NCBI GenBank assembly: GCA_964364425.1
Contig: CAYIMB010000016.1
Location: forward strand, 1 to 28,181
DNA: 28,181 nt
Origin: an uncultured Gammaproteobacteria bacterium
GTDB lineage: Bacteria; Patescibacteriota; Patescibacteriia; UBA9570; JBBTWU01
Direction: 5' to 3'
The notes under the pieces are model-generated. The model made no database searches. It saw only the letters and a program-made list of their open reading frames with translations, and was not told where the DNA came from. The translations under genes were made by a program, and so were the position numbers. This document shows, in pieces, positions 206 to 14,764 of this stretch (the stretch's first letter is position 1; each line of letters starts with the position of its first letter).

Positions 206-685
206 CTACCAGTGGCGCCGGAAGAACCAGGCCCAGCCCAGCATGGTCAGCAGGGCCCAGGCCGTGGCCACCAGAGAACCCGGCACAGGATCCAGCAACC
301 GGCCCGCCACCACGACCAGCGGAAGCAGGAACAGCTGACCCATGGTCACCACGCTCTCCATTTCCCAGACCTGGCAGTCCATGATCCGGTCCATCCAGAA
401 GACGAACCGACGGGACGTACGCAGAGGGTATGTGGCAAGAAACAATCCAAAGCTGCTGGTCACCACCAAGCCGACCAGGCTCAACACCGCCCACACCGTC
501 AGGCTGGCCAAGAAGATCGACAAGGACCACTCCTTGGATTCGCGCAGGATGAACACCAGTAGGAGTCCCGTCAGTCCTCCCCAGGCCCAGATGAAGAGGT
601 TGAACAAGACCCATCCCAGGAGGCTGACCCTTACGTCAGCTACCCGGATGATCTGGTGAATCGGCCCAAACACATGGTCAAACAT
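206..685 (-). CDS. hypothetical multi-pass membrane protein (GC-rich ORF, ~4 predicted TM segments)
   Basis: 159-aa ORF whose hydrophobic segments look like real helices (LLGWVLFNLFIWAWGGLTGLLLVF, LVVVAGRLL...). The opposite-strand ORFs are low-complexity R/H/G/P nonsense. The ORF lies in a ~65% GC patch at 150-690 against a ~49% GC background. No family recognised. Confidence 0.35.
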   Translation of the reverse strand: MFDHVFGPIHQIIRVADVRVSLLGWVLFNLFIWAWGGLTGLLLVFILRESKEWSLSIFLASLTVWAVLSLVGLVVTSSFGLFLATYPLRTSRRFVFWMDRIMDCQVWEMESVVTMGQLFLLPLVVVAGRLLDPVPGSLVATAWALLTMLGWAWFFRRHW

Positions 686-2192: not shown

Positions 2193-2387
2193 ATGCCAAA
2201 GCAACGAACAGTCAAAGTCATCAGCAAGCGCGTGCGACTGACCAAGACCGGAAAAATTAAACACAAACGCGCCGGTCAAGGTCACTTTAATGCTCGTGAG
2301 TCCGGCAACACCACCCGTATGAAGCGTCGCTTGGGCACCATGTCCAAAGCCAATGAACGCAACATCCGCCGGGCAATTGGAATGTAA
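2193..2387 (+). CDS. rpmI: 50S ribosomal protein L35
   Basis: 64-aa basic protein MPKQRTVKVISKRVRLTKTGKIKHKRAGQGHF..., starting 1 nt after the infC stop. Confidence 0.9.
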   Translation: MPKQRTVKVISKRVRLTKTGKIKHKRAGQGHFNARESGNTTRMKRRLGTMSKANERNIRRAIGM

Positions 2388-2407: not shown

Positions 2408-2743
2408 ATGCCACGAGTCAAACGAGGAAAAACACATTTGAAACGTCGCCAGCGCTTGTTGAAAACCACCCGCGGTTTCCGCGCCGGTCAAAAGAACTTA
2501 CTGAAGTTGGCTAAAGCCGCTTCTAAAAAAGCTGGCCAAAAAGCCTACGACCACCGTCGCTTGAAGAAGCGCGACATGCGAGCCACTCACCAGATGAAAA
2601 TTAATGCTGCTGCTCGCTTGAACGGAACAACCTACTCCAAGTTCATGCACCACCTGAAAAAGAAAGGCATCATCTTAGACCGCAAAGTCCTGGCTGACTT
2701 AGCTCAAAACTATCCAGAAGTGTTTGCGGCTTTGACCAAATAA
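2408..2743 (+). CDS. rplT: 50S ribosomal protein L20
   Basis: 111-aa product MPRVKRGKTHLKRRQRLLKTTRGFRAGQKNLLKLAK... with the canonical L20 N-terminus. It is the third gene of the infC-rpmI-rplT operon. Confidence 0.92.
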   Translation: MPRVKRGKTHLKRRQRLLKTTRGFRAGQKNLLKLAKAASKKAGQKAYDHRRLKKRDMRATHQMKINAAARLNGTTYSKFMHHLKKKGIILDRKVLADLAQNYPEVFAALTK

Positions 2744-2749
2744 ATCTGA

Positions 2750-5700
2750 CTAGCTAGAAGGCTTGGCAGGTGGCGCTAGCTCCAGTACCTTATGCGCTTT
2801 GGCGTTTGCTGCTTGCAGATGATCGAGTTCTGTATTCACACTCTCTAGCATTTTTACTCTGTCATCCTCTGTGCCCACTTTCTTTCCACTTAATAGCTGG
2901 TTGAACTGATCAATGGTGTACTTCAGCGCTAAAGCTTCTGCATTGCGGTAAGATTTTTCAGCTTGCTTCAATTCTGTGAACATGGCGTAAACAGACGACG
3001 GAGCAGGCATCACATCTCTAAGCCTCTCTTGCAACGTCTTGTTTACCACCAAAGCATCACCTGAAACCTTGGCTATTCGTTCTATCCTGCGGGTCATGTC
3101 GCCAAACGGGTCTCCCACAAAAACAGACATCAGAGCGTTAAATGGCCCGGCCCGTTTTTTTACTTCGGCCTTAGCTAATTCAATCAGGTCTCTATCCCGA
3201 ATTAAATCGATCAACTCGGTGAAAGAACCCGGGGGTTCTAGATTGCCCACTTTTGGAGGGTAACTGGCTTCAATAACCAATCCGCGCCCAACCGGCGGGG
3301 CGGGCAGAATCACAGGCTCACCAGGTGGCCGAGGCGTAGGTGGTGTGGTTGGCTCACCACTGAGCAAGGTTTTTTTCAGGTTATTCCACTGATCTAACCT
3401 CAAACCATAAGGGCGGACTTGTTGTTTCTTGGCTTTTGCTTCCGCCTCTTCACGTAGTATGATAAAGCTGACTATTTTCTTTTCAGTATTGAGGCCGGTA
3501 ATTCTGAACTGATCATTTATTTTGAATGGGGGTCGGTCAGAACCGGTGTAGGCATAGATTTGTCCCGCCTTAATTTCGCTGAGCAACCTAACTTCCGCTG
3601 TCTCAACCGGAACACCACCTACCTTGGCCTCCGGCCTAGGGCCACTCACCAGTGTTTTGGGTAAGCCTCGCCAAACCTCCCTGGACGCCATAAATGGTTG
3701 AGCTGAGCTTTTTGCTCTGCCAGCTGCAGCTTCGTCTTTAGCTGTGACCACAGTAACTAATCCTTTTTCATGGTCAACCCTGACTACTCTAAAATTTCCT
3801 CCCGGGTTGAGCTGATTTTTACGGGAAGGAACACCATCATACCTCCAAATTTGTCCAACCATCACCTCTGGGGATAACGGATATTCTACTAAACGATCTG
3901 TTGGTCTGATTCGTTCCAAGCTTGGTTGTCCGCTTGGTTCAGCCTCAAGTGGACCTGCCCCTTGCAGAACCTTTACTTTTTTCCCGGTCACCAAGCCGGC
4001 AAAGGCTTCTAAAGGGACTCTAACCACCCCAACATCTACACCCTCCACATCCAGAAGAACTTCCCCACTGACCAAGACAACCCCCTCTACCCGAACCTTA
4101 GTTGGGATGGGCTGTTTAGGGTGTTTGATAATCCATTCTTCCAGGTGTGAACGCAACAAACTGCTGACCGCTTCCTCACCCAACTCAACCAGGTGGTTGG
4201 TTTGAATTCCGGCCCGTTCAACGGTGTTAGCCAAACCCTCCATCTCCTGCGCCATCCGGTACAACTGTTCTATAGACATCACTCCGATTGTTCCGTCTGG
4301 AAGGTTCAATTCAACCTCCTCCTGCGCAACTGAAATGCTTTGAATTCGCAAGGGTTCAGATACCACGGTGAGTCCAAACATTTTTTCCAACGTACGCTTA
4401 GAACTTGCACTCAGGCCTAAAAATTCACCCACAGCAAAGAAGTTTTTATTGAGCCATGAATTCATTTCGCCGGCAGTTAATTTTTGGGCTTCTCCCTCTG
4501 GTGGGCGGACTGCATCTGGAGCAGAGGTTGGTGCCCTGACCTTCAGCGGCGCAGGCAAACCAAAATCTGGCATGGGGGGTGGCGGTGGCGCACTAGCCGG
4601 AGCGCCGCTGGCGAGGCGTTCTAATTCAGTAATTCTTCCGTCCAAAATAGGCACTAACCCGTCCGCCAGGAGTAAATCACTCACAAAATCTTGGTCCAAA
4701 TAACGTGTACCGTCTTCTTTTTTCCGTTTACCCCCAACACGTACCCAAGCGTCACCCACGGCATACACCTTTTCTAATTCTGCTTTACGCTGCCGTAAGG
4801 CCTCAACATCCTCAGCATAAAAAATATCAAGACCTTCTTGTGTCACTCTAAACTCAACGTTTGGTTGAACCAAGGGTCTAAATTCGTCAATGTCTTCACC
4901 TAAATCGGCTTTGCGTTGTGCCCGTTCTTGCGTCCGAGCCGCCTCTTCAGCGGTACGGCGGGCAAGTTCTTCAGCCCCTTCCTTAGCTAACACTTTTTTG
5001 GCACTTTCAATCTCCGCGCTAACTCGCTGAATTTCTTTAGACACTTTTTCTTTCTCTAGACCCAAAACTTTATATCTGCCTTCCTCTGCCAGATCACTTT
5101 CAAACTTCTCCGGATTGGCTAATATCTTTCTCCTTTCTTCAGCCATCAGACGCTCTAACTTACGCAACACATCCAAACGTTCAGACAAGCCCTTGGCCGC
5201 CAACTCAGGACTATCAAGCTGGATGAATAACTGCTCCATCAAAGCCACCCCTTCAGGTGAGACTAAACCTTTTAGACTGTCCCACAGTTCTTTACCCTTG
5301 CCCGCAGGCTCCGCCTTGGCAGTGGCCGGAGTGACTCCTTTTTTTGGTTCAAACCCTTCAAAATAACACAACAGCTGGAACTTGTGTCTGGCCTGAGCAT
5401 GTTCTGTATACACCAATTTCACCTCGCCCTTGTCATTTGCCTTGAGCTGATCAGGCGTCCAACCTTTGGGAACTTGAACATACGCATCAAACTTAAATTC
5501 AGGGTCGACCAGATTAGGCAACACCACATACTCACCATCCTTTTTTACCTCCTTCACCGCATCAACTGACAACATAAAATGGTTTTTTCCCTTGCTTATC
5601 CGTTCATCTACCCTCTTCCCCCAGGCCTTAATTTGGTCTTCACTCTCAGCATACTCAGGGGACAGCACCTCCACAATCAAATTTTTGGTTCTAGGATTTT

Positions 5701-6247
5701 CTTTTATTTCCTGAACAGCAAACTCATACTTCTCTACACCTTCTTCAGGCTCCCAGTCCCGAGGAAAATTCTTCACTTCAATGCGTACAGGAAGAAAATG
5801 ATGCTGAGAGTCTATATCCTCAAACGCTAAAAATCTGCGGCCACCTTCCTCTATCACCGGCAAAGTCACTTTTTTTCCTGGTGGATACTTCTCACTCCAA
5901 TGTTTTGCCGATTCAACTACCGCCCGTTGCCACTCTTGCTCAGCCTGCTGTTTCACCGGCTCTGACCCCACAATCTTCCCCTTGACTCTCTTTCCGTCTC
6001 TTGAAACAAAGGTGATCTCTAGATCAACAATATTTTGCAATGGATTAAATTTTGGTGGCACACCCTCAACCTCAACCATTGGTGGAGTAGTCCGCCCGCC
6101 TCCCACCATAAAAGCAACCGTCTCCCAAGGGCTTCTGCTCCCTGGTTTGAGTTGCATGGGATAGACTTGCTTAAACTCAAAGTCGATTTTCACTGGACCC
6201 TTGTCCGGTGGTGGTGGTTGCTGTCCTTGTTGTTGTCTTTTTGGCAT
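2750..6247 (-). CDS. giant hypothetical protein (1165 aa). Has Pro-rich linkers, a central coiled coil, and an internal SH3-like repeat pair. No signal peptide and no recognisable catalytic motif.
   Basis: A single uninterrupted 3.5-kb ORF. The poly-Pro spacers are PPPPDKGP, APPPPPMPDFGLPAPL and TTPPTPRPPGEPVILPAPPVG. The coiled coil is AEELARRTAEEAARTQERAQRKADL. The repeated module is GQIWRYDG...NFRVVRVDHEKGLVTVV versus GQIYAYTG...QFRITGLNTEKKIVSFII. I found no P-loop, HExxH or other catalytic signature. It is translationally coupled to the PP2C-fusion gene upstream (3-bp gap). Confidence 0.6.
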   Translation of the reverse strand: MPKRQQQGQQPPPPDKGPVKIDFEFKQVYPMQLKPGSRSPWETVAFMVGGGRTTPPMVEVEGVPPKFNPLQNIVDLEITFVSRDGKRVKGKIVGSEPVKQQAEQEWQRAVVESAKHWSEKYPPGKKVTLPVIEEGGRRFLAFEDIDSQHHFLPVRIEVKNFPRDWEPEEGVEKYEFAVQEIKENPRTKNLIVEVLSPEYAESEDQIKAWGKRVDERISKGKNHFMLSVDAVKEVKKDGEYVVLPNLVDPEFKFDAYVQVPKGWTPDQLKANDKGEVKLVYTEHAQARHKFQLLCYFEGFEPKKGVTPATAKAEPAGKGKELWDSLKGLVSPEGVALMEQLFIQLDSPELAAKGLSERLDVLRKLERLMAEERRKILANPEKFESDLAEEGRYKVLGLEKEKVSKEIQRVSAEIESAKKVLAKEGAEELARRTAEEAARTQERAQRKADLGEDIDEFRPLVQPNVEFRVTQEGLDIFYAEDVEALRQRKAELEKVYAVGDAWVRVGGKRKKEDGTRYLDQDFVSDLLLADGLVPILDGRITELERLASGAPASAPPPPPMPDFGLPAPLKVRAPTSAPDAVRPPEGEAQKLTAGEMNSWLNKNFFAVGEFLGLSASSKRTLEKMFGLTVVSEPLRIQSISVAQEEVELNLPDGTIGVMSIEQLYRMAQEMEGLANTVERAGIQTNHLVELGEEAVSSLLRSHLEEWIIKHPKQPIPTKVRVEGVVLVSGEVLLDVEGVDVGVVRVPLEAFAGLVTGKKVKVLQGAGPLEAEPSGQPSLERIRPTDRLVEYPLSPEVMVGQIWRYDGVPSRKNQLNPGGNFRVVRVDHEKGLVTVVTAKDEAAAGRAKSSAQPFMASREVWRGLPKTLVSGPRPEAKVGGVPVETAEVRLLSEIKAGQIYAYTGSDRPPFKINDQFRITGLNTEKKIVSFIILREEAEAKAKKQQVRPYGLRLDQWNNLKKTLLSGEPTTPPTPRPPGEPVILPAPPVGRGLVIEASYPPKVGNLEPPGSFTELIDLIRDRDLIELAKAEVKKRAGPFNALMSVFVGDPFGDMTRRIERIAKVSGDALVVNKTLQERLRDVMPAPSSVYAMFTELKQAEKSYRNAEALALKYTIDQFNQLLSGKKVGTEDDRVKMLESVNTELDHLQAANAKAHKVLELAPPAKPSS
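6183..6191 (+). repeat. copy of over-represented 9-mer TCGATTTTC
   Basis: Exact match, context aagTCGATTTTCact, inside the 1165-aa gene. Confidence 0.6.
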
Positions 6248-6250
6248 AGG

Positions 6251-8644
6251 TTATTTCTTTGGTTGGGTCAAATCTTGAATCCGCTCCTGCAAATTTTCTA
6301 TACTATCCACCCAGAGCATAAAGTCTCCCACTTCTTCCATTGATTCTGGTTCAAACCTCTCCGGATATTTGGCCAGAGCTGCTTGCAGTTCCCTATAGAC
6401 TGGCTCAAATACTGTACCCCTAAACCGGCCCTGATCCAATTTTAACGCGTAGTTACCTGCTTTAAACCATATCCGTACAGACCAGATAGACTGTTCTGCT
6501 GCGTCTAACAGTGCATCAACCTCCTCAAGTTTATGGGATACGTGTAAATCGACCTGTTCTGTTTCTAACTTGCGCAGCCATTGCTGTGCGGGCAAAGCCA
6601 TTCGTTTCAGCGGCTTCCCGTCCCTACCTAAAGCAAGCATAACTACTATATTTGGAGTGTCAGGGTCGTTTGGTGGAAAGACTTCAGTCACCTGCATCTT
6701 CTGCGTACCCCGGTCGTCAACCAATTCAAATACTCTCCCCTTCAAGGATTCAAAATCAGCCTCCAACCAAGCTAATATGTAACTTTGCTCAACCTGCTGA
6801 GACTGGCCCTCCTGTTGAGCTTCCAAGTTTTCAAAAGCATTCTGCCAATCTTTATTTTGCACCATAGTAGCGTAGCTCGCTTTTAGCTCTGGCCAGGCTT
6901 GGTCAAACTGATCCATAGCCTCAAGCAAGTAGTTCTTACGCACCGGTATTTTTTCCGCCCAGGGCCTGTCTAGCTTCACCCGTCCTTCTAACGCGGCTAA
7001 ATTATCCTCTAAGCTCCAAATCTCCCACAACAGGGCATCAGCAGCTTGTTCATTCTTTTGCATGTAACGCAAATCATGCTCCTGCAATCTTTTGCTTCTC
7101 AGTTCTGCACTTACAGAAGTGTGTTCAACTGAAGGCAACGGTGACAGCTCCGCCCTGGGAGGTGCCGGTTGCCAAGTTGGTAGTGGCGGCAACGGCGGTG
7201 GGACAACTCTTACTGGTTCAGAGGCCCAAGTAGGGTCTGGCGGCAACGGCGCCGGCCCAGGTTCTTCCTCTTCAACTTCAACCAGGACGGGAAGCTTAGC
7301 CCTCCCCCGGCGCGCTTCATCCACCGGGGTCTTTTCTTCTGCGTACCCTGGCCCGATTGGTTCTAAATGTGGGGCGGAGCGACTGGTCGGAGTAAAAGAT
7401 GTCACTTCAGTCCGGTCTGCATCTAGATGTCTAGGCAAAACGGGAACAGCCTGCCGCCTGACCAGTATGGTCTTGTGGTCTGCCCCACCGGCCCCCCTGC
7501 CGCCCGGTTGAAACAATTTCAATATATTATTTCTAGTTTCCTCTGCATTCCGGCCCACCAAATGGCCAAGCTCAGACAACGGATCAAGCAGTTTAGAAAA
7601 CGCACGCATGCTGTCATACGCTGGATCAAACACCCACCGATCTGTTTTTTTATCTTTCTTGGTTGGAATCACCCGCAAGCCCAAAGGCGCTAGTATGCCG
7701 TCTGTGACAGAGATGACGGTGTCATCCGGTTGCAATTCGAACTCCTCTACGGATACATCTGCATCATCATAGCCTAACACCTTGACTGGATCAACCCAGA
7801 TAATTCGTTTTATTCTTTCTAAATCAGTACGCGCCAGATAGTTTAATTCAGACCGAATTTTTTCTATTGGCGTGGTGGCTAAATACTCACTCAGCTTGGC
7901 CTTCAGGTCTTTTGGTGGGACGTTATAGATATCAACAAAGCGTTGTAGCCGGCTGGTTGGCTTAGAACAAAACACTACCTTCTCATTTCTGATCACCAAG
8001 TTCATGGCATCACCCAACACAAATGAATATAACTTGTTTCCCTCAATCAATGTTCCGGCTACAACTGATCCGCCTTCTGCATCTGGACCAAGAGCTTCCC
8101 TCACCGCGGCATGGGCTTTATGTCCAATCAACTTAAGTCGATTTTCAGGGGTATTTTTTACGCTGCGAGTGCGTAATTCCCCCTGCAACATCCCCGCCTG
8201 TTCAGGTGTAGTCCACTGGCGTATAGCCCTCAAGAGAGCTTGTGTGGCAATTCTTCCCTTCCCTCCATGACTCACTCCATCAGCCACAACCCCTATATCT
8301 AACAAAGGATCCACAAACACACCATCTTCATTATTTTCCTTCTTTCCGTGATCTGTTGAGTAGGCCACTTCTACGGCAGGAAGAACTATCTGGTCAGCAT
8401 AGTCGGTAATAGCAGGATCATCCTGGTACACCGGCATTCTGCCTACAAAATCTTCATAGGCTCTCCGTTGTTCAGGATTCAGGGCTGCTAGTCGTTCTTT
8501 AAACACGCGTTGAGCTGCCGGCTCAGCTGGTTCTCCAACCAACCCCGTGCCTGGGCCCGCCTTTGGCGGCGCACCAAATAATTTGCCTAATCCAAGGCTA
8601 TCTAGTAGTCCTCTCCCTGGGGTTTTGCCGGTAACGTCTGCCAT
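6251..8644 (-). CDS. large PP2C-type Ser/Thr phosphatase-domain protein (797 aa) with Pro-rich linker and a C-terminal domain of unknown function
   Basis: PP2C motifs appear in order. They are HGKKENNEDG (G..R..NED-like), IGVVADGVSHGGKGRIATQAL (VADGMGGH-like), GGSVVAGTLI...FVLGDA (GTT...GDS-like), VISVTDGILAPLG (LCSDGL-like) and GGADHKT (GGEDN-like). The metal-ligand Asp residues are retained. These are followed by a PLPPDPT...PPPLPPLPTWQPAPP linker and about 330 aa of unassigned sequence. Confidence 0.55.
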   Translation of the reverse strand: MADVTGKTPGRGLLDSLGLGKLFGAPPKAGPGTGLVGEPAEPAAQRVFKERLAALNPEQRRAYEDFVGRMPVYQDDPAITDYADQIVLPAVEVAYSTDHGKKENNEDGVFVDPLLDIGVVADGVSHGGKGRIATQALLRAIRQWTTPEQAGMLQGELRTRSVKNTPENRLKLIGHKAHAAVREALGPDAEGGSVVAGTLIEGNKLYSFVLGDAMNLVIRNEKVVFCSKPTSRLQRFVDIYNVPPKDLKAKLSEYLATTPIEKIRSELNYLARTDLERIKRIIWVDPVKVLGYDDADVSVEEFELQPDDTVISVTDGILAPLGLRVIPTKKDKKTDRWVFDPAYDSMRAFSKLLDPLSELGHLVGRNAEETRNNILKLFQPGGRGAGGADHKTILVRRQAVPVLPRHLDADRTEVTSFTPTSRSAPHLEPIGPGYAEEKTPVDEARRGRAKLPVLVEVEEEEPGPAPLPPDPTWASEPVRVVPPPLPPLPTWQPAPPRAELSPLPSVEHTSVSAELRSKRLQEHDLRYMQKNEQAADALLWEIWSLEDNLAALEGRVKLDRPWAEKIPVRKNYLLEAMDQFDQAWPELKASYATMVQNKDWQNAFENLEAQQEGQSQQVEQSYILAWLEADFESLKGRVFELVDDRGTQKMQVTEVFPPNDPDTPNIVVMLALGRDGKPLKRMALPAQQWLRKLETEQVDLHVSHKLEEVDALLDAAEQSIWSVRIWFKAGNYALKLDQGRFRGTVFEPVYRELQAALAKYPERFEPESMEEVGDFMLWVDSIENLQERIQDLTQPKK
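8138..8146 (+). repeat. copy of over-represented 9-mer TCGATTTTC
   Basis: Exact match, context aagTCGATTTTCagg, inside the PP2C-fusion gene. Confidence 0.6.
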
Positions 8645-8823
8645 AGTGTAAATTTGGCTTTTATTTTACCATTTTCTCTGCGGAACCACAACGGATGGGA
8701 TGAATGTAAAAGCCGGAAAATATATCAGAAATACGGAACAAGTCAATGACTTGGGAAAATCCGATCTGCACGACTAGACAAACCCTTGAAAATCAGTAAA
8801 CTGTGCTGTATTCGCAAGGCCTT

Positions 8824-8901
8824 GGAGCGGTGGTGTAGCTGGCCCAACACGCCTCCCTGTCACGGAGGAGACCGCGGGTTCGAATCCCGTCCGCTCCGCC
8901 A
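8824..8901 (+). tRNA. tRNA-Asp (anticodon GTC), CCA encoded
   Basis: Cloverleaf is GGAGCGG/CCGCTCC acceptor, GTGT/ACAC D-stem, CCTCC-CTGTCAC-GGAGG anticodon arm (anticodon GTC), GCGGGTTCGAATCCCGT T-arm, discriminator G, then CCA. The sequence is near-identical in architecture to E. coli tRNA-Asp. Confidence 0.88.
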
Positions 8902-9369
8902 GTCCGAACGACTTGATCTCTCAACAATTCTATCAAAGGGTTTCTTATATATAACATTGAGGTTTTTGTCTGTGAGGGAAGAGTTCGAAAGTAAAAAATT
9001 CAATAAATCTTGCTTTTCATCAGGATTGGCCTTTTTATAGAGAATACTGGCCATATTTGAAAGTTCTAAAATATCTATGCCAGTTTTGTAGTAATCGATA
9101 TTTGCCTTAGTGTAGCGAGCTATTTTTTCTGTCAGATCTTTAATAGCTGTTTCGTATTCAGTAGCTTTAGAATTATAAAAATCTTTAGTGATTGTCCCAT
9201 CTAATCTATCCTCATAAAGTGTACTAAGAGTTTTCTCCAACCGCTTCTTTTCAGCTTCTAGACGTTCTTGGGCTTGATCCTCTGTGTCCCTCTTAGAATA
9301 CAAAGACTGTTTCAGACCTGCGGCAACGTACGCAATCGCTTCCTGGGGTATTTTAAGGCCGTCTAGGTG
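8860..9369 (-). pseudogene. truncated large serine recombinase (C-terminal coiled-coil/DUF4368-like region only). The reading frame runs into the 3' end of tRNA-Asp.
   Basis: The frame is open from the stop at 9370-9372 down to 8860. It reads ...AEKKRLEKTLSTLYEDRLDGTITKDFYNSKATEYETAIKDLTEKIARY...LLNFLLSNSSLTDKNLNVIYKKPF. This matches the LYED.L.G.IS.E.F / coiled-coil / ...IEIYY C-terminal module of large serine recombinases. The roughly 350 aa that should precede it (catalytic, recombinase and zinc-ribbon domains) have no room, since only about 210 bp lie before the next gene. The ORF-track M at 9303 is a TTG. Confidence 0.45.
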
Positions 9370-9379
9370 TCAATCTACT

Positions 9380-9388
9380 GAAAATCGA
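9380..9388 (-). repeat. copy of over-represented 9-mer TCGATTTTC
   Basis: Exact match on the minus strand, context ataTCGATTTTCagt, in the recombinase-remnant region. Confidence 0.6.
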
Positions 9389-9400
9389 TATGAACTGAGG

Positions 9401-9583
9401 CTAAAAACCGGCTGGGTACCCCATGAGTTGTTTAACTTGTTGTATGGCTTGCCTACCTTGATCTGAAGTCTGGATGAGCAACATAAACATCATTGCTCCT
9501 ATAGCTATCAACAGGAGTTCCACTAAACTCCTAAACCACACATTTGCCCACATGTACTTCAATTCTTTTTTTAAGCGTGACAT
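9401..9583 (-). CDS. small hypothetical single-TM protein (60 aa), directly downstream of the NHL gene
   Basis: ATG at 9581-9583, 1 nt after the NHL-protein stop (TGAtATG). One hydrophobic helix, LVELLLIAIGAMMFMLLI. It could be a remnant. Confidence 0.2.
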   Translation of the reverse strand: MSRLKKELKYMWANVWFRSLVELLLIAIGAMMFMLLIQTSDQGRQAIQQVKQLMGYPAGF

Positions 9584-11978: not shown

Positions 11979-12040
11979 AAAGTGCAGTGCTCAGAGGTTC
12001 GTAGCAGAACCATAAGAGCTTGCGAGGCCTAGGCCCGTGG

Positions 12041-13411
12041 CTAGCGGGCGGTGACGGACACTCCGTCCGGACAGGTGAAGGTCTCACCCATCACCATCAC
12101 CTTCAGCACGGGCGAAAGGTCCCCCGCCCGATTGTACAGGCGGTAGACGTTCTCGTCCGACACGTTGGCTTGTCCGCCACACCCGTGAGGTGCCATGGCG
12201 TACTGGATGGACGAGTAGCCCCGAATGCTGTGGTAGTTGGACTCCAGCCAGACCTGCCTGTGCGTGCTACCACACTGGCAGATGAACACCGACCCAGCAG
12301 AGGTCGGCGAACCAATCCGGACGGACCCCTGCGGGTCAATCTGGACGGGCTGAAGGAACTTGGGGGTGGCCCCAGAATACCGACGGACTGCTTCCTCGGC
12401 GTGATCCTCGATGTTCAGCCCGAGCATGTCGGAGATGGCCAATCCCCCACACCAACCACACATGGCGAGGAAGGCCAGACAGACAGCCACGAACAGCACC
12501 GAACCCAACGAGAACTTGCCGCGCCACCACCCGATGAACATGGCCCCCACCACCAGCACGCCGGCCGCACCCAGGATGATGAGTCCCGTGTAGGACTCCA
12601 GCGTGGCCACGTTCTGCTGGGCCTGCTGGTTCCACGTGGTCACCCACGCGCGCTGATTGGGATCAGCGTAGTCCAGGGCGTAGGCGTTGCAGTTGCCCAC
12701 GCGGTCCACGTAGAGCGTCTCGCTCCACCAGACGAGACCGAAGTCGAAGACCTTCTGCTGGTGGACAGACAGGTCCCAGGCCGAGAGCGGGAGGGGGACG
12801 AGCTGCGCCTGCTCCGGGCCGCACGAGGGCGTCCGGTAGGCGTAGAACAGCTCTCCTTCCAGGGCCTGATCGGTGTAGGATCCGCGCGTGTTTACCTCCA
12901 GGGCCACGAACGCGTTGAGGACCACCACCACGACCAGGGCCGTGCCCGGCAGGAACTCGAAACCGAGCGACTGACCCAGCGCTTTCGCGCCGAGCCCGAA
13001 GCCGATCAGGAGCCCCATCACCAGCACGGTCGACCCGACCATCCAGAACCCCTGGCTGTGGGCCCCGTTCGCACCGGTGCTCCACATGAACTGCCAGCAC
13101 ACAACCGACAGCGCCATCAGCAGGCTGCCGCCGATCATGATGCGGTTGGCCTTGGGGAGGAAGGTGGGCGGCTCACGGCCCGCGGCCTTAACCCAGGCTT
13201 CAACGCCCAGGCCCACGCCGAGGAGCAGCACGTACGCCGCCCCGGCAATGGCCCAGCCGGTCGCGCTGAGCATGGTGGTGTGGAACTGGCTCGCCAGGAG
13301 GCTCACCGACCCGAAGGCCAGGAGCAGCGCGAGCGTCGCCACCAGCACCCCCCACACCAGGGACTGCTGGATGTTGAACCGAGAAAGGAAGTTACGCATT
13401 GGAAGCCTCAC
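12041..13411 (-). CDS. hypothetical polytopic membrane protein with Cys-rich C-terminal domain (456 aa), GC-rich
   Basis: At least 8 hydrophobic helices. The C-terminus has CQCGSTH...HGCGG...TCPDG cysteines. The opposing 466-aa plus-strand ORF is R/H/G/P-rich nonsense typical of antisense high-GC DNA. GC is about 64%. No family recognised. Confidence 0.5.
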   Translation of the reverse strand: MRLPMRNFLSRFNIQQSLVWGVLVATLALLLAFGSVSLLASQFHTTMLSATGWAIAGAAYVLLLGVGLGVEAWVKAAGREPPTFLPKANRIMIGGSLLMALSVVCWQFMWSTGANGAHSQGFWMVGSTVLVMGLLIGFGLGAKALGQSLGFEFLPGTALVVVVVLNAFVALEVNTRGSYTDQALEGELFYAYRTPSCGPEQAQLVPLPLSAWDLSVHQQKVFDFGLVWWSETLYVDRVGNCNAYALDYADPNQRAWVTTWNQQAQQNVATLESYTGLIILGAAGVLVVGAMFIGWWRGKFSLGSVLFVAVCLAFLAMCGWCGGLAISDMLGLNIEDHAEEAVRRYSGATPKFLQPVQIDPQGSVRIGSPTSAGSVFICQCGSTHRQVWLESNYHSIRGYSSIQYAMAPHGCGGQANVSDENVYRLYNRAGDLSPVLKVMVMGETFTCPDGVSVTAR

Positions 13412-13474
13412 AGTTGTTGACAGAGTTGGAGAGAGGAGAGGATTGAACCGACTCGCTTGGCCTTAGCCTGCAAA

Positions 13475-13582: not shown

Positions 13583-14764
13583 TCAGGGCTTCTTCTTGGG
13601 GGCCCCACCCCCGCCGGACTTGCCGCCCGGCGCGCCCTTGGACGACCCACCTCCGGGGCCACCCACAGCGTTGCCGGACATCACGTCGCCGACGGAGACG
13701 ATCGGGGCGTCGCTCGACGGCACCCCCGATTGTGCATCCAGACTCTTCAGCACCCGACTCCCCAGATAGGCCTGGGCCGCACGGTCCATGACCCCGGGGT
13801 TGGCCGGGAGCTTTTCCATGCCCATAGCCTTCAGGACTTTCCCCGCGGCACTGGCTCGGTGGTCGGCAGCCTTGTCAGCCTGTTCAGCCGACTGGACCTG
13901 CTCAACCGCCTTGCGGAGCGCTTCAGGGAGTTCGATCCCCTCGAGACGGACGTCGAAGATCACCAACCCGAACCGGTGAAGAGACTGGTTGGCCATCACG
14001 ACGACCTGCTCCATCAGCTCCTGGCGGTTTTTGTCCCGCTGGACACGGATGGGCAGCAGGTGACCGGGCCTACGCGTCACGCCCTGGTTCAGCCAGGCGT
14101 TGACCGCAAGCGGTTCAACGTCGGCAATCCCCAGCTCCTGCGCCGCCTCGTTGAGCGCGGACGCAATGGCCGTGGAGGCCTCCTGCCAGATGTTCTCTGG
14201 CCGGAGCGCCGCCCGGATGATGGCGGCGTCGGTGGTCACGTACGGCTGAGCCTTGTCGAAGGGCTCATCCGGGTGGGTCACGAAGATGTGGGTCTGGCGC
14301 TTGCGACGCGCTTCCCGCACCTTCTCGGCGTAGGCCGGGAACCGCTCAGCTTCCGCCAGCGGGATCCGGAACAAACGCCACTTCACCTCTCCAACCACCA
14401 CGGAGAAGCGAATGTTGAACGCGACGGCCTGCCCGTTCTTGACGTTCACGGGCATGGGGGCCACGTTTTCCTGCCTCGGGACACGGGAGACGATCGCCAC
14501 GAAGTCGTGGACGATGCCCGGGATGAACAGGCGCCACCCCTCGTTCTTCACTTCATATCCCTCGTAGATCCGATCCTCGGGGGGCATGTCGTAGCGAACG
14601 CTGTCGATCCGAGCCTGGTGCTCCGCCGGGGTTGACACACGAGAGTAGGGGGTTGAGCCCCACGCCGAGCGCAACACCATTGAAGTACCTTCTTCCACCT
14701 GGACGAGTCCAGGTGTCGGAGGGGTCTTGATGATCCCCGCCTTTGTTTCATCGATGTGGGCCAT
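13583..14764 (-). CDS. SPFH/band-7 (stomatin/flotillin-like) domain protein, no N-terminal TM, Gly-rich basic C-tail
   Basis: Band-7 core GWRLFIPGIVHDF...VNVKNGQAVAFNIRFSVVVGEV. The C-terminal SPFH helix region is GLVIFDVRLEGIELPEALRKAVEQVQSAEQADKAADHRASAAG. The tail is GGPGGGSSKGAPGGKSGGGGAPKKKP. The start codon overlaps the stop of the upstream small membrane ORF (TAAATG). Confidence 0.65.
   Translation of the reverse strand: MAHIDETKAGIIKTPPTPGLVQVEEGTSMVLRSAWGSTPYSRVSTPAEHQARIDSVRYDMPPEDRIYEGYEVKNEGWRLFIPGIVHDFVAIVSRVPRQENVAPMPVNVKNGQAVAFNIRFSVVVGEVKWRLFRIPLAEAERFPAYAEKVREARRKRQTHIFVTHPDEPFDKAQPYVTTDAAIIRAALRPENIWQEASTAIASALNEAAQELGIADVEPLAVNAWLNQGVTRRPGHLLPIRVQRDKNRQELMEQVVVMANQSLHRFGLVIFDVRLEGIELPEALRKAVEQVQSAEQADKAADHRASAAGKVLKAMGMEKLPANPGVMDRAAQAYLGSRVLKSLDAQSGVPSSDAPIVSVGDVMSGNAVGGPGGGSSKGAPGGKSGGGGAPKKKP

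Follow-up and report, generated by a model that had tools for sequence, protein, structure and literature searches.

Two strictly linked, fast-evolving genes of a narrow Patescibacteria clade: a predicted PP2C-type phosphatase and its multi-domain partner

Introduction

What task can be served by two long adjacent genes whose products have diverged at several times the pace of the other proteins of the genome, and which are found side by side at the same chromosomal site in every relative available? The question is raised by contig CAYIMB010000016.1 of assembly GCA_964364425.1, a stretch of 28,181 nucleotides (nt) from an uncultured bacterium of the Patescibacteria, which was analysed at its full length and is called here the window. 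Gene A (6251..8644 including the stop codon, minus strand) encodes a predicted PP2C phosphatase fusion of 797 amino acids (aa), and gene B (2750..6247 including the stop codon, minus strand) a multi-domain partner of 1165 aa, deposited at NCBI as "hypothetical protein" MEK7539994.1. A preceding inspection of the letters alone, hereafter the original prediction, had singled them out as a candidate uncharacterised two-gene module standing apart from standard housekeeping arrangements. To our knowledge, it is largely unknown how the Patescibacteria, or candidate phyla radiation (CPR), sense or manipulate their partners, and few of their lineage-specific proteins offer a functional handle.

Results

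A strictly linked gene pair at a fixed chromosomal site

Relatives of both genes are few. Only three relatives of A were found in a collection of 5.8 billion clusters, and an exhaustive HMMER search with B through 1.84 billion representative proteins gave ten hits: B itself, six full-length relatives, one partial relative of 1450 aa and two fragments. A word-indexed search with B, alone or as a four-sequence profile, returned only B and missed the syntenic homologues, probably because of low-complexity words. The relatives are carried by seven contigs, all from Logan assemblies (runs SRR22387935-SRR22388219); homologues of A comprise proteins P0002-P0004 and the copies of L004, L006 and L007. 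On all seven contigs an A-like gene (689-901 aa) is immediately followed by a B-like gene (1118-1450 aa), and rplT stands convergently downstream, followed by rpmI, infC and smpB. With the window included, A and B are linked in 8/8 loci. The spacer between them is 1-4 nt everywhere, and the gap of 35 nt called in L007 contains an in-frame ATG 2 nt past the A stop codon. The two loci that reach far enough have a tRNA-Asp gene upstream of A, and four other contigs (L002, L003, L004 and L007) end inside it. Nothing was found when GTDB species genomes and JGI metagenomes were scanned with alignment patterns of A and B, and viral contigs with A; a survey of the literature on PP2C in Patescibacteria and on the accessions of these runs gave nothing relevant either.

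Since intact syntenic homologues exist on seven other contigs and non-synonymous divergence (dN) is well below synonymous divergence (dS), A and B are real genes rather than chance open reading frames (ORFs). Linkage in all eight loci at the same site, together with the small number of homologues, makes them a strictly linked module with a fixed chromosomal position, confined to a narrow clade of Patescibacteria. Co-occurrence of the homologues, which the original prediction had proposed to check, is thus complete, and its view of an uncharacterised module foreign to housekeeping families agrees with searches of Pfam, NCBIfam and PDB, where no housekeeping match was obtained.

In the window the two ORFs are separated by 3 nt (6248..6250, minus strand; TAA CCT ATG), and the junction, ...AAA TAA CCT ATG CCA..., has no Shine-Dalgarno-like sequence. 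They span 5895 bp, i.e. 20.9% of the window, so that the gap of 3 bp and the share of about 21% given originally were exact. The same is true for the distance of 6 bp between the ends of B and rplT, whose stop codons occupy 2750-2752 and 2741-2743, respectively, in convergent genes. The series facing B consists of smpB, tmRNA, infC, rpmI (2193..2387) and, as the last one, rplT (2408..2743); at the other end tRNA-Asp (8824..8901, plus strand) diverges from A 180 nt upstream of it. Proline-rich spacers and the lack of a signal peptide had also been noticed correctly. Proline-rich stretches lie at residues 451-510 of A and 11-40, 531-580 and 961-1000 of B, and since hydropathy in a 19-residue Kyte-Doolittle scan peaks at 1.32 in A and 1.53 in B, neither protein contains a hydrophobic signal or transmembrane segment. 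Public calls of the B start differ: the MGnify/ENA one (P0006, 1119 aa) begins 46 codons downstream of the NCBI one. Because homologues conserve these 46 residues, with P12, P13, D15, P18, L33 and G36 invariant among the four closest, the 1165-aa version is the better call.

A divergent PP2C core in protein A

The assignment of A to a family is built on motifs, on weak profile matches and on stronger matches of its relatives. The window protein alone is similar to PstP at E=1.4e-4 over aa 94-247, to the NCBIfam model Stp1 (NF033484) at E=5e-4 (19.7 bits against a cut-off of 230) and to the Pfam model SpoIIE (PF07228) at E=0.008 (16.6 bits against a cut-off of 25 bits; aa 288-318). Among its close homologues the SpoIIE match appears in 4/4 and PP2C_2 in 3/4, and the distant homologue of L006 has a recorded match to PF13672, reaches PstP at E=8e-10 and possesses the canonical ADGMGGHAAGEVAS motif. 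Judged by sequence, the link of window A to the PP2C family is therefore transitive and passes through clade members such as that of L006.

The predicted PP2C/PPM catalytic domain occupies aa 93-397 (7454..8368; all parts of A and B described here are on the minus strand) and has the expected fold, a central beta-sandwich flanked by helices. It carries the motifs NED (D107), ADG (D122-G123), GDA (G211), TDG (D315-G316) and DH-T (D389), and all these residues are invariant in an alignment of seven sequences with 25-57% identity. D107 and D122-G123 align with the NED and ADG motifs of PstP (D25 and D38-G39), and D315-G316 falls inside the SpoIIE match. The least certain assignment is that of D389 (DH-T-ILV) to motif 11, which was suggested by the order of motifs and the strand after it. 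The metal-binding aspartates of motifs 1, 2, 8 and 11 are present, so that the claim of their intactness survived alignment with PstP and with homologues. Thus, A appears to be a divergent member of the PPM/PP2C superfamily in a new domain combination, and Mn2+/Mg2+-dependent phosphatase activity can be predicted for it.

The core was expected at the N-terminus and is indeed in the N-terminal half, but it starts only at about aa 93, after a region (aa 1-92; 8369..8644) modelled as disordered (predicted local distance difference test, pLDDT, below 50), in which the short motifs MAD..., LVGEPAEP and RERLA are conserved and P31, E38 and R51 are invariant in seven homologues. The "unassigned" C-terminal part of about 330 aa also has to be redrawn. 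It consists of a proline-rich linker of about 105 aa (aa 398-505; 7130..7453), recognised by its composition, by pLDDT below 50 and by a length varying from 32 to 205 aa in homologues, and of a folded domain of about 290 aa (aa 506-797; 6254..7129). In the latter, four long helices precede a small beta-barrel (638-701), and the end is again helical; the domain is modelled with pLDDT of 85-90 and has no specific known relative.

For comparison we took bacterial PPM/PP2C phosphatases of known structure: PstP (1txo, 2cm1), tPphA (5iti, 2j86), Stp1 (2pk0, 5f1m) and PppA (6jkv), from M. tuberculosis, T. elongatus, S. agalactiae and S. aureus, and P. aeruginosa, respectively. A is only 13-19% identical to them. 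It differs in a helical insert ("flap") of about 70 residues (aa 229-300) between the GD and TDG motifs, in a last motif that reads DH rather than DN, and in its disordered N-terminus of 92 aa, proline-rich linker and novel C-terminal domain, whereas PstP is anchored in the membrane and Stp1 and tPphA are stand-alone enzymes. Some likeness to SpoIIE, RsbU and RsbP is seen in the weak PF07228 match of all four A members and in the last motif, D-x-x-T-[IV]-L-V-R-R, which, as read from the sequence, resembles the DDxT motif. Like these proteins A has a large non-catalytic region, but it is C-terminal and unrelated in sequence.

A modular partner made of small barrels

No match to B was found in Pfam, NCBIfam, PHROGs, PADLOC or PDB sequences, whether it was used as a single protein, as profiles of four or eight sequences or in member-by-member scans, and its domains became visible only in the AlphaFold2 model computed from eight homologues. 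The mean pLDDT is 76.5, with 80-90 in domains; the predicted template modelling score of 0.30 is expected, because the modules are joined by flexible linkers. In the search of PDB with Foldseek one match fell below E=1e-3, namely the multi-S1-domain protein SP_0946 (3go5, CvfB-type; E=3.6e-5). It was followed by weaker matches of high probability to the N-terminus of eIF2alpha (E of about 0.02-0.1), the S1 domain of NusA, MJ1198 and OB folds of Teb1 (probability 0.5-1.0 for eIF2alpha, NusA and MJ1198; 0.9-1.0 for SP_0946 and eIF2alpha as the best ones). Further matches concern the translocation-signal domain of TraI (4l0j), the tandem SH3-like pair of human KIN17 (9coj) and the tandem Tudor pair of SGF29 (3met). 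In view of these matches B, as modelled, is for the most part an assembly of small beta-barrels of OB/S1/SH3/Tudor type.

The likeness to SP_0946 and eIF2alpha lies in tandem small five-stranded beta-barrels followed by helices. However, B shows no S1 signal at the sequence level, TM-scores are low, at 0.16-0.3 of the target, since superposition is limited to single modules, and B is four times longer, with an additional coiled coil, proline-rich linkers and a helical bundle. KIN17, TraI and SGF29 resemble the duplicated pair of B with a probability of 0.99-1.0, but their E-values are weak (5e-3 to 0.2), sequence similarity is absent, the matched part of the query is not reported and the functional contexts are unrelated. 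B is an orphan family composed of common small-barrel folds.

The domain order is as follows. Residues 19-300 (5348..6193; pLDDT 70-89) form three beta-rich modules with helices between them (96-120 and 203-218), and residues 317-546 (4610..5299) a helical region with one helix of 92 residues (386-477). After the first proline-rich linker (547-591; 4475..4609; pLDDT below 50) comes an alpha/beta region with small beta-barrels (592-765; 3953..4474), in line with the Foldseek matches to S1/OB/SH3-like proteins; its strands lie within 633-658 and 717-760, the latter in beta-beta-beta-alpha-beta order. This region and the module following it are the best-conserved part of the protein. Next there are two copies of an OB/SH3-like barrel-plus-helix module, at 785-872 (3632..3895) and 880-966 (3350..3610), which match each other at E=6e-24 in hhalign; the second one is absent from the homologues of L004 and L006. 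For the underlying duplication (aa 770-882 against 869-978) hhalign gives E from 3e-15 to 6e-24 and Smith-Waterman alignment z=21. The second linker (967-1004; 3236..3349), evident from its proline content, the model and a length varying from 21 to 118 aa in homologues, leads to a conserved C-terminal bundle of three long helices (1005-1160; 2768..3235; pLDDT 80-94).

The coiled coil and the duplicated SH3-like module proposed for B earlier were thus recovered, and the SH3-like fold matches of the tandem repeat agree with the latter. The statement that B has no identifiable enzymatic motif also held: no catalytic domain is apparent either in family scans or in the fold model, where only barrels, helices and linkers are seen. 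A mild positive charge (+1 to +6) is found consistently in the duplicated modules, and the rest of B is acidic or neutral. Homology between these modules and the C-terminal beta module of A is not detectable (hhalign probability <1%).

Fast divergence and two allelic classes

Between the four closest genomes (the window, L001, L002 and L003) amino acid identity is 90-98% for rplT, infC and smpB and about 87-88% for ArgRS and an NHL-repeat protein, but only 42-57% for A and 32-49% for B. Comparison of these four with L004, L006 and L007 gives 72-93% for rplT, infC and smpB, 23-33% for A and 21-33% for B; ordinary genes of L001, L002 and the window are 49-73% identical to those of L006 and L007. 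The dN of A and B (0.35-0.73) is about 10 times that of their neighbours, and the evolution of the two genes outpaces that of the remaining proteome 4-6-fold. Where an estimate is possible, their dN/dS does not exceed roughly 0.16-0.28. Since the ORFs and catalytic residues are intact and dN/dS is low, A and B are, as judged from these comparisons, functional and moderately constrained genes that evolve very fast.

Four-fold degenerate sites differ in A and B at a frequency of 0.60-0.73, close to the random expectation of 0.73. We considered this saturation as a possible sign of ancient alleles and rejected it, since ArgRS and the NHL gene (0.59-0.63) are near saturation too; the low dS of rplT, infC and smpB is due to codon bias.

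A distribution of another kind was found in the N-terminal half of B. Over aa 19-546 the window and L002 make up one class, L001 and L003 the other. Members of one class are 48-60% identical and members of different classes 23-34%, as low as to different genera; for aa 19-300 taken separately the figure between classes is 26-28%. Judged by flanking genes, L001 and L002 are the closest pair (dS of 0.2-0.3 in infC and rplT), yet their B proteins belong to opposite classes. Past the first proline-rich linker all four genomes are roughly equidistant, the window being nearest to L001, and identity in sliding windows shifts at alignment columns ~570-600. Because the class pattern of aa 19-546 clashes with the phylogeny of flanking genes and ends at the linker, modular exchange of alleles with a breakpoint at this linker may be assumed for B. 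A search of the available contigs for silent or paralogous B cassettes found none.

Expression signals

The best candidate in a promoter scan upstream of A is P1, a sigma-70-like TTGACT-16-TATATT element with a TG extension (8719..8746, minus strand; 10/12 positions), located about 75 nt ahead of the start codon of A. Its hexamers are invariant in all seven loci aligned, while the coding sequence diverges. A second block, TTGTGG-17-TGGTAAAAT, which ends with (TGG)TAAAAT 18 nt before the ATG of A (8663..8691, minus strand), is also invariant in the seven-locus alignment and may be another promoter, one whose -10 element is extended. The third conserved element between A and the tRNA is the promoter of tRNA-Asp on the other strand. 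As a whole, the intergenic region 8645-8823 is better conserved than the coding sequence of A. The leader of A was examined as a structured RNA as well, and this was rejected in favour of promoter elements, since it gave no Rfam match, no significant fold (z=0.15) and no covariation.

At the opposite end of the pair the original prediction saw no room for a terminator. This is true of the window, where B and rplT are separated by 6 nt (2744-2749), but not of L001 (16372-16431) and L002 (6326-6385), where a spacer of 60 nt holds a perfect bidirectional intrinsic terminator made of an A-tract, a GC stem and a U-tract (fold z=-4.6 and -3.2, respectively). In L004, L006 and L007 the spacer is 0-10 nt, without the terminator, and there, as in the window, the convergent operons seem to lack insulation. 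Because the terminator spacer is absent, convergent read-through is possible in the window.

Discussion

Based on these data we lean, tentatively, to the assumption that A and B make a co-expressed cytoplasmic phosphatase-scaffold complex. The pair would then be a chromosomal, vertically inherited operon of one small Patescibacteria clade, transcribed from one conserved promoter, and translation of B would be coupled to the end of A, ensuring that both proteins are made together. A would act as a metal-dependent phosphatase of PPM/PP2C type, its core joined by a proline-rich linker to the novel C-terminal domain, and B as a non-enzymatic modular scaffold. The non-catalytic domain of A may dock on B, and B would then target or gate the phosphatase, its hypervariable N-terminal half being the part responsible for specificity or sensing and the conserved PP2C core serving as the output. 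That some function is maintained is indicated by the intact ORFs and by dN below dS where dS can be estimated.

Several observations weigh against this complex. By the curated thresholds of Pfam and NCBIfam window A remains below the cut-offs, and the PP2C part of its model has a low pLDDT of 40-70. Binding of A to B is something that we infer, and a co-evolution test gave no encouragement: the segment-wise divergence of A does not mirror the two-class pattern of B. No gene for a Hanks-type kinase or an FHA or STAS partner is present within +/-10 kb of any locus, and for this reason no substrate pathway was identified for A. Finally, neither the 4-6-fold acceleration nor the deep allelic classes of B would obviously be needed by a purely internal signalling module.

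The kinase/PP2C pairs PknB-PstP, PrkC-PrpC and PpkA-PppA-Fha differ from the present one in that A has no adjacent Pkinase or FHA gene within that distance in the eight loci. Partner-switching modules are distinguished by STAS and anti-sigma HATPase kinase genes, neither of which appears in Pfam listings of the eight neighbourhoods or of the window. The TerY-P triad, a defence system containing PP2C, has companion genes that A-B lack; PADLOC matches at E<=0.1 number 0 for A and 0 for B, and TerY/vWA or kinase neighbours were not seen.

The pair seems tractable for biochemistry and for asking whether Ser/Thr phospho-signalling of CPR bacteria acts internally or against other cells. A has a recognisable and testable PP2C core, B is its obligatory orphan partner with confidently modelled domains, and the pair bears a clear evolutionary signature in its fast divergence and in the allele classes of one half of B, which cross species boundaries. 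If it is only a clade-specific internal regulator, it will be of local interest.

The phosphatase-scaffold complex leaves just this signature without an obvious need, and it is the rate and the allele classes, as the sole points in favour, that suggest another explanation, possible but rather unlikely: a host-interaction or conflict module acting on the host cell of the episymbiont, on a competitor or on a phage. A would be in this case a PP2C-fold effector, either a phosphatase or an enzyme removing AMP or phosphocholine, and B a diversifying partner for recognition or delivery. Such chemistry has precedents, as SidD and Lem3 of Legionella are PP2C-fold effectors that remove AMP and phosphocholine, respectively. 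Against A, however, SidD (4iip, 6rre) and Lem3 (8anp) score below true bacterial phosphatases, and no Dot/Icm-type secretion context exists at the locus. Signal peptides, transmembrane segments, sorting motifs and neighbouring secretion genes are all lacking for A and B; PADLOC, PHROGs and viral contigs gave no match, and those cited from the literature, secreted exoproteins of FhaB type, differ from A and B. Moreover, with dN/dS below 1 where estimable and dS saturated, positive selection is not demonstrated. The effector, signalling and defence roles guessed at in the original prediction are touched by the same two features, the fast evolution of both proteins and the allelic classes of B. 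A more specific version, to which we ascribe a still smaller likelihood, would be a new type of diversifying interaction module of episymbiotic Patescibacteria, in which a conserved PP2C-fold enzyme is combined with a B protein whose N-terminal half is kept as deeply divergent allelic classes that recombine. Its task would be to recognise a changing external target (a component of the host cell, a competitor or a phage) and to act on it, with neither a known secretion signal nor a known defence architecture.

The folds of B could be taken in a different sense, i.e. as a nucleic acid-binding protein of multi-S1/OB type, next to which A dephosphorylates factors of translation or RNA metabolism. 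SP_0946 as the first match followed by other S1/OB folds, the mild positive charge of the duplicated modules and the constant vicinity of infC-rpmI-rplT, tmRNA and smpB are in line with an RNA- or ribosome-associated regulator, which we nonetheless consider improbable. None of the eight B homologues matches a Pfam model of S1 or another RNA-binding domain, and most domains of B are acidic or neutral. Small beta-barrels bind peptides and sugars too, and the tandem SH3-like and Tudor matches rank beside S1. The translation genes are convergent and, in L001 and L002, insulated by the terminator, so that no co-regulation is implied by their proximity. Such fast evolution would also be unusual for core translation factors.

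One may ask whether there is any elaborate function at all, or only weakly constrained lineage-specific ORFans, for instance a loose structural or spacer protein with a decaying phosphatase. Linkers and predicted disorder make up about 25-30% of each protein, length variation is large, and the searches made gave no relatives outside the clade. We find this hard to reconcile with ORFs of 2.1-4.4 kb that stay intact in eight lineages at synonymous sites near saturation, with folded domains that are confidently modelled and conserved, and with the invariance of four catalytic aspartates, of the promoter and of the coupling junction; little credence is left for it.

That the pair is cargo of a tRNA-integrated mobile or defence island, a thought prompted by tRNA-Asp 180 nt upstream of A, by related contigs (four) breaking inside it and by a 147-aa ORF (8860..9303, minus strand) weakly resembling the C-terminus of the large serine recombinase CcrC (E=3e-4), is the most remote explanation of all and is largely refuted, because A-B keeps a fixed position on the 5' side of the tRNA whatever lies beyond its 3' end, where the remnant and the variable DNA are found, and no att-like repeat was found, while GC content of 0.46-0.52 matches the genome and PADLOC, PHROGs and viral contigs gave no defence or phage family. 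The tRNA with its recombinase remnant, which had been offered as a mark of an unusual arrangement, thus loses this meaning.

Surroundings of the locus

The region beyond tRNA-Asp deserves attention irrespective of A and B. In the window (8824-9517) it contains an insert of about 600 bp with the weak recombinase remnant, an ORF that overlaps the tRNA 3' end and is specific to the window; in L001 the genes of MgsA, Germane and MTHFR follow, and in L006 riboflavin synthase. The region looks like a hotspot of integration or rearrangement. Otherwise the window is an ordinary CPR chromosome with genes for NHL-repeat, SPFH and DsbA-like proteins, Rpe, RpiB, BlaI/BlaR-like proteins, a cation efflux protein, DeoC, ComEC, GlmS and a peptide-chain release factor.

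At the left end, positions 1-764 (GC content ~0.54) do not align to the relatives, which mostly have ArgRS beside smpB. There are overlapping ORFs in several frames, among them a hydrophobic one of 159 aa (206..685, minus strand) with no family match. The longest infC ORF (1607-2191, starting with GTG) shares 44 nt with the 3' end of the tmRNA gene (1258-1650). In relatives infC is called at 141-193 aa, so that translation probably begins at a later position, perhaps from a non-standard codon.

Between 12000 and 15000 the window has an island of 62-70% GC in a genome of ~48% GC. Two genes of the minus strand lie there: 12041..13411 (456 aa, no family match) and 13583..14764 (393 aa, SPFH/Band_7). 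The island is not an assembly chimera, since it is conserved in L001 with 76.6% nucleotide identity. For its first part the public gene call in L001 (1175-2485, corresponding to 12020..13420 of the window on the plus strand) is probably on the wrong strand, because in that frame the supposed "four-fold" sites differ by 3% while amino acids are 62% identical, and the periodicity of mismatches fits 12041..13411 on the minus strand.

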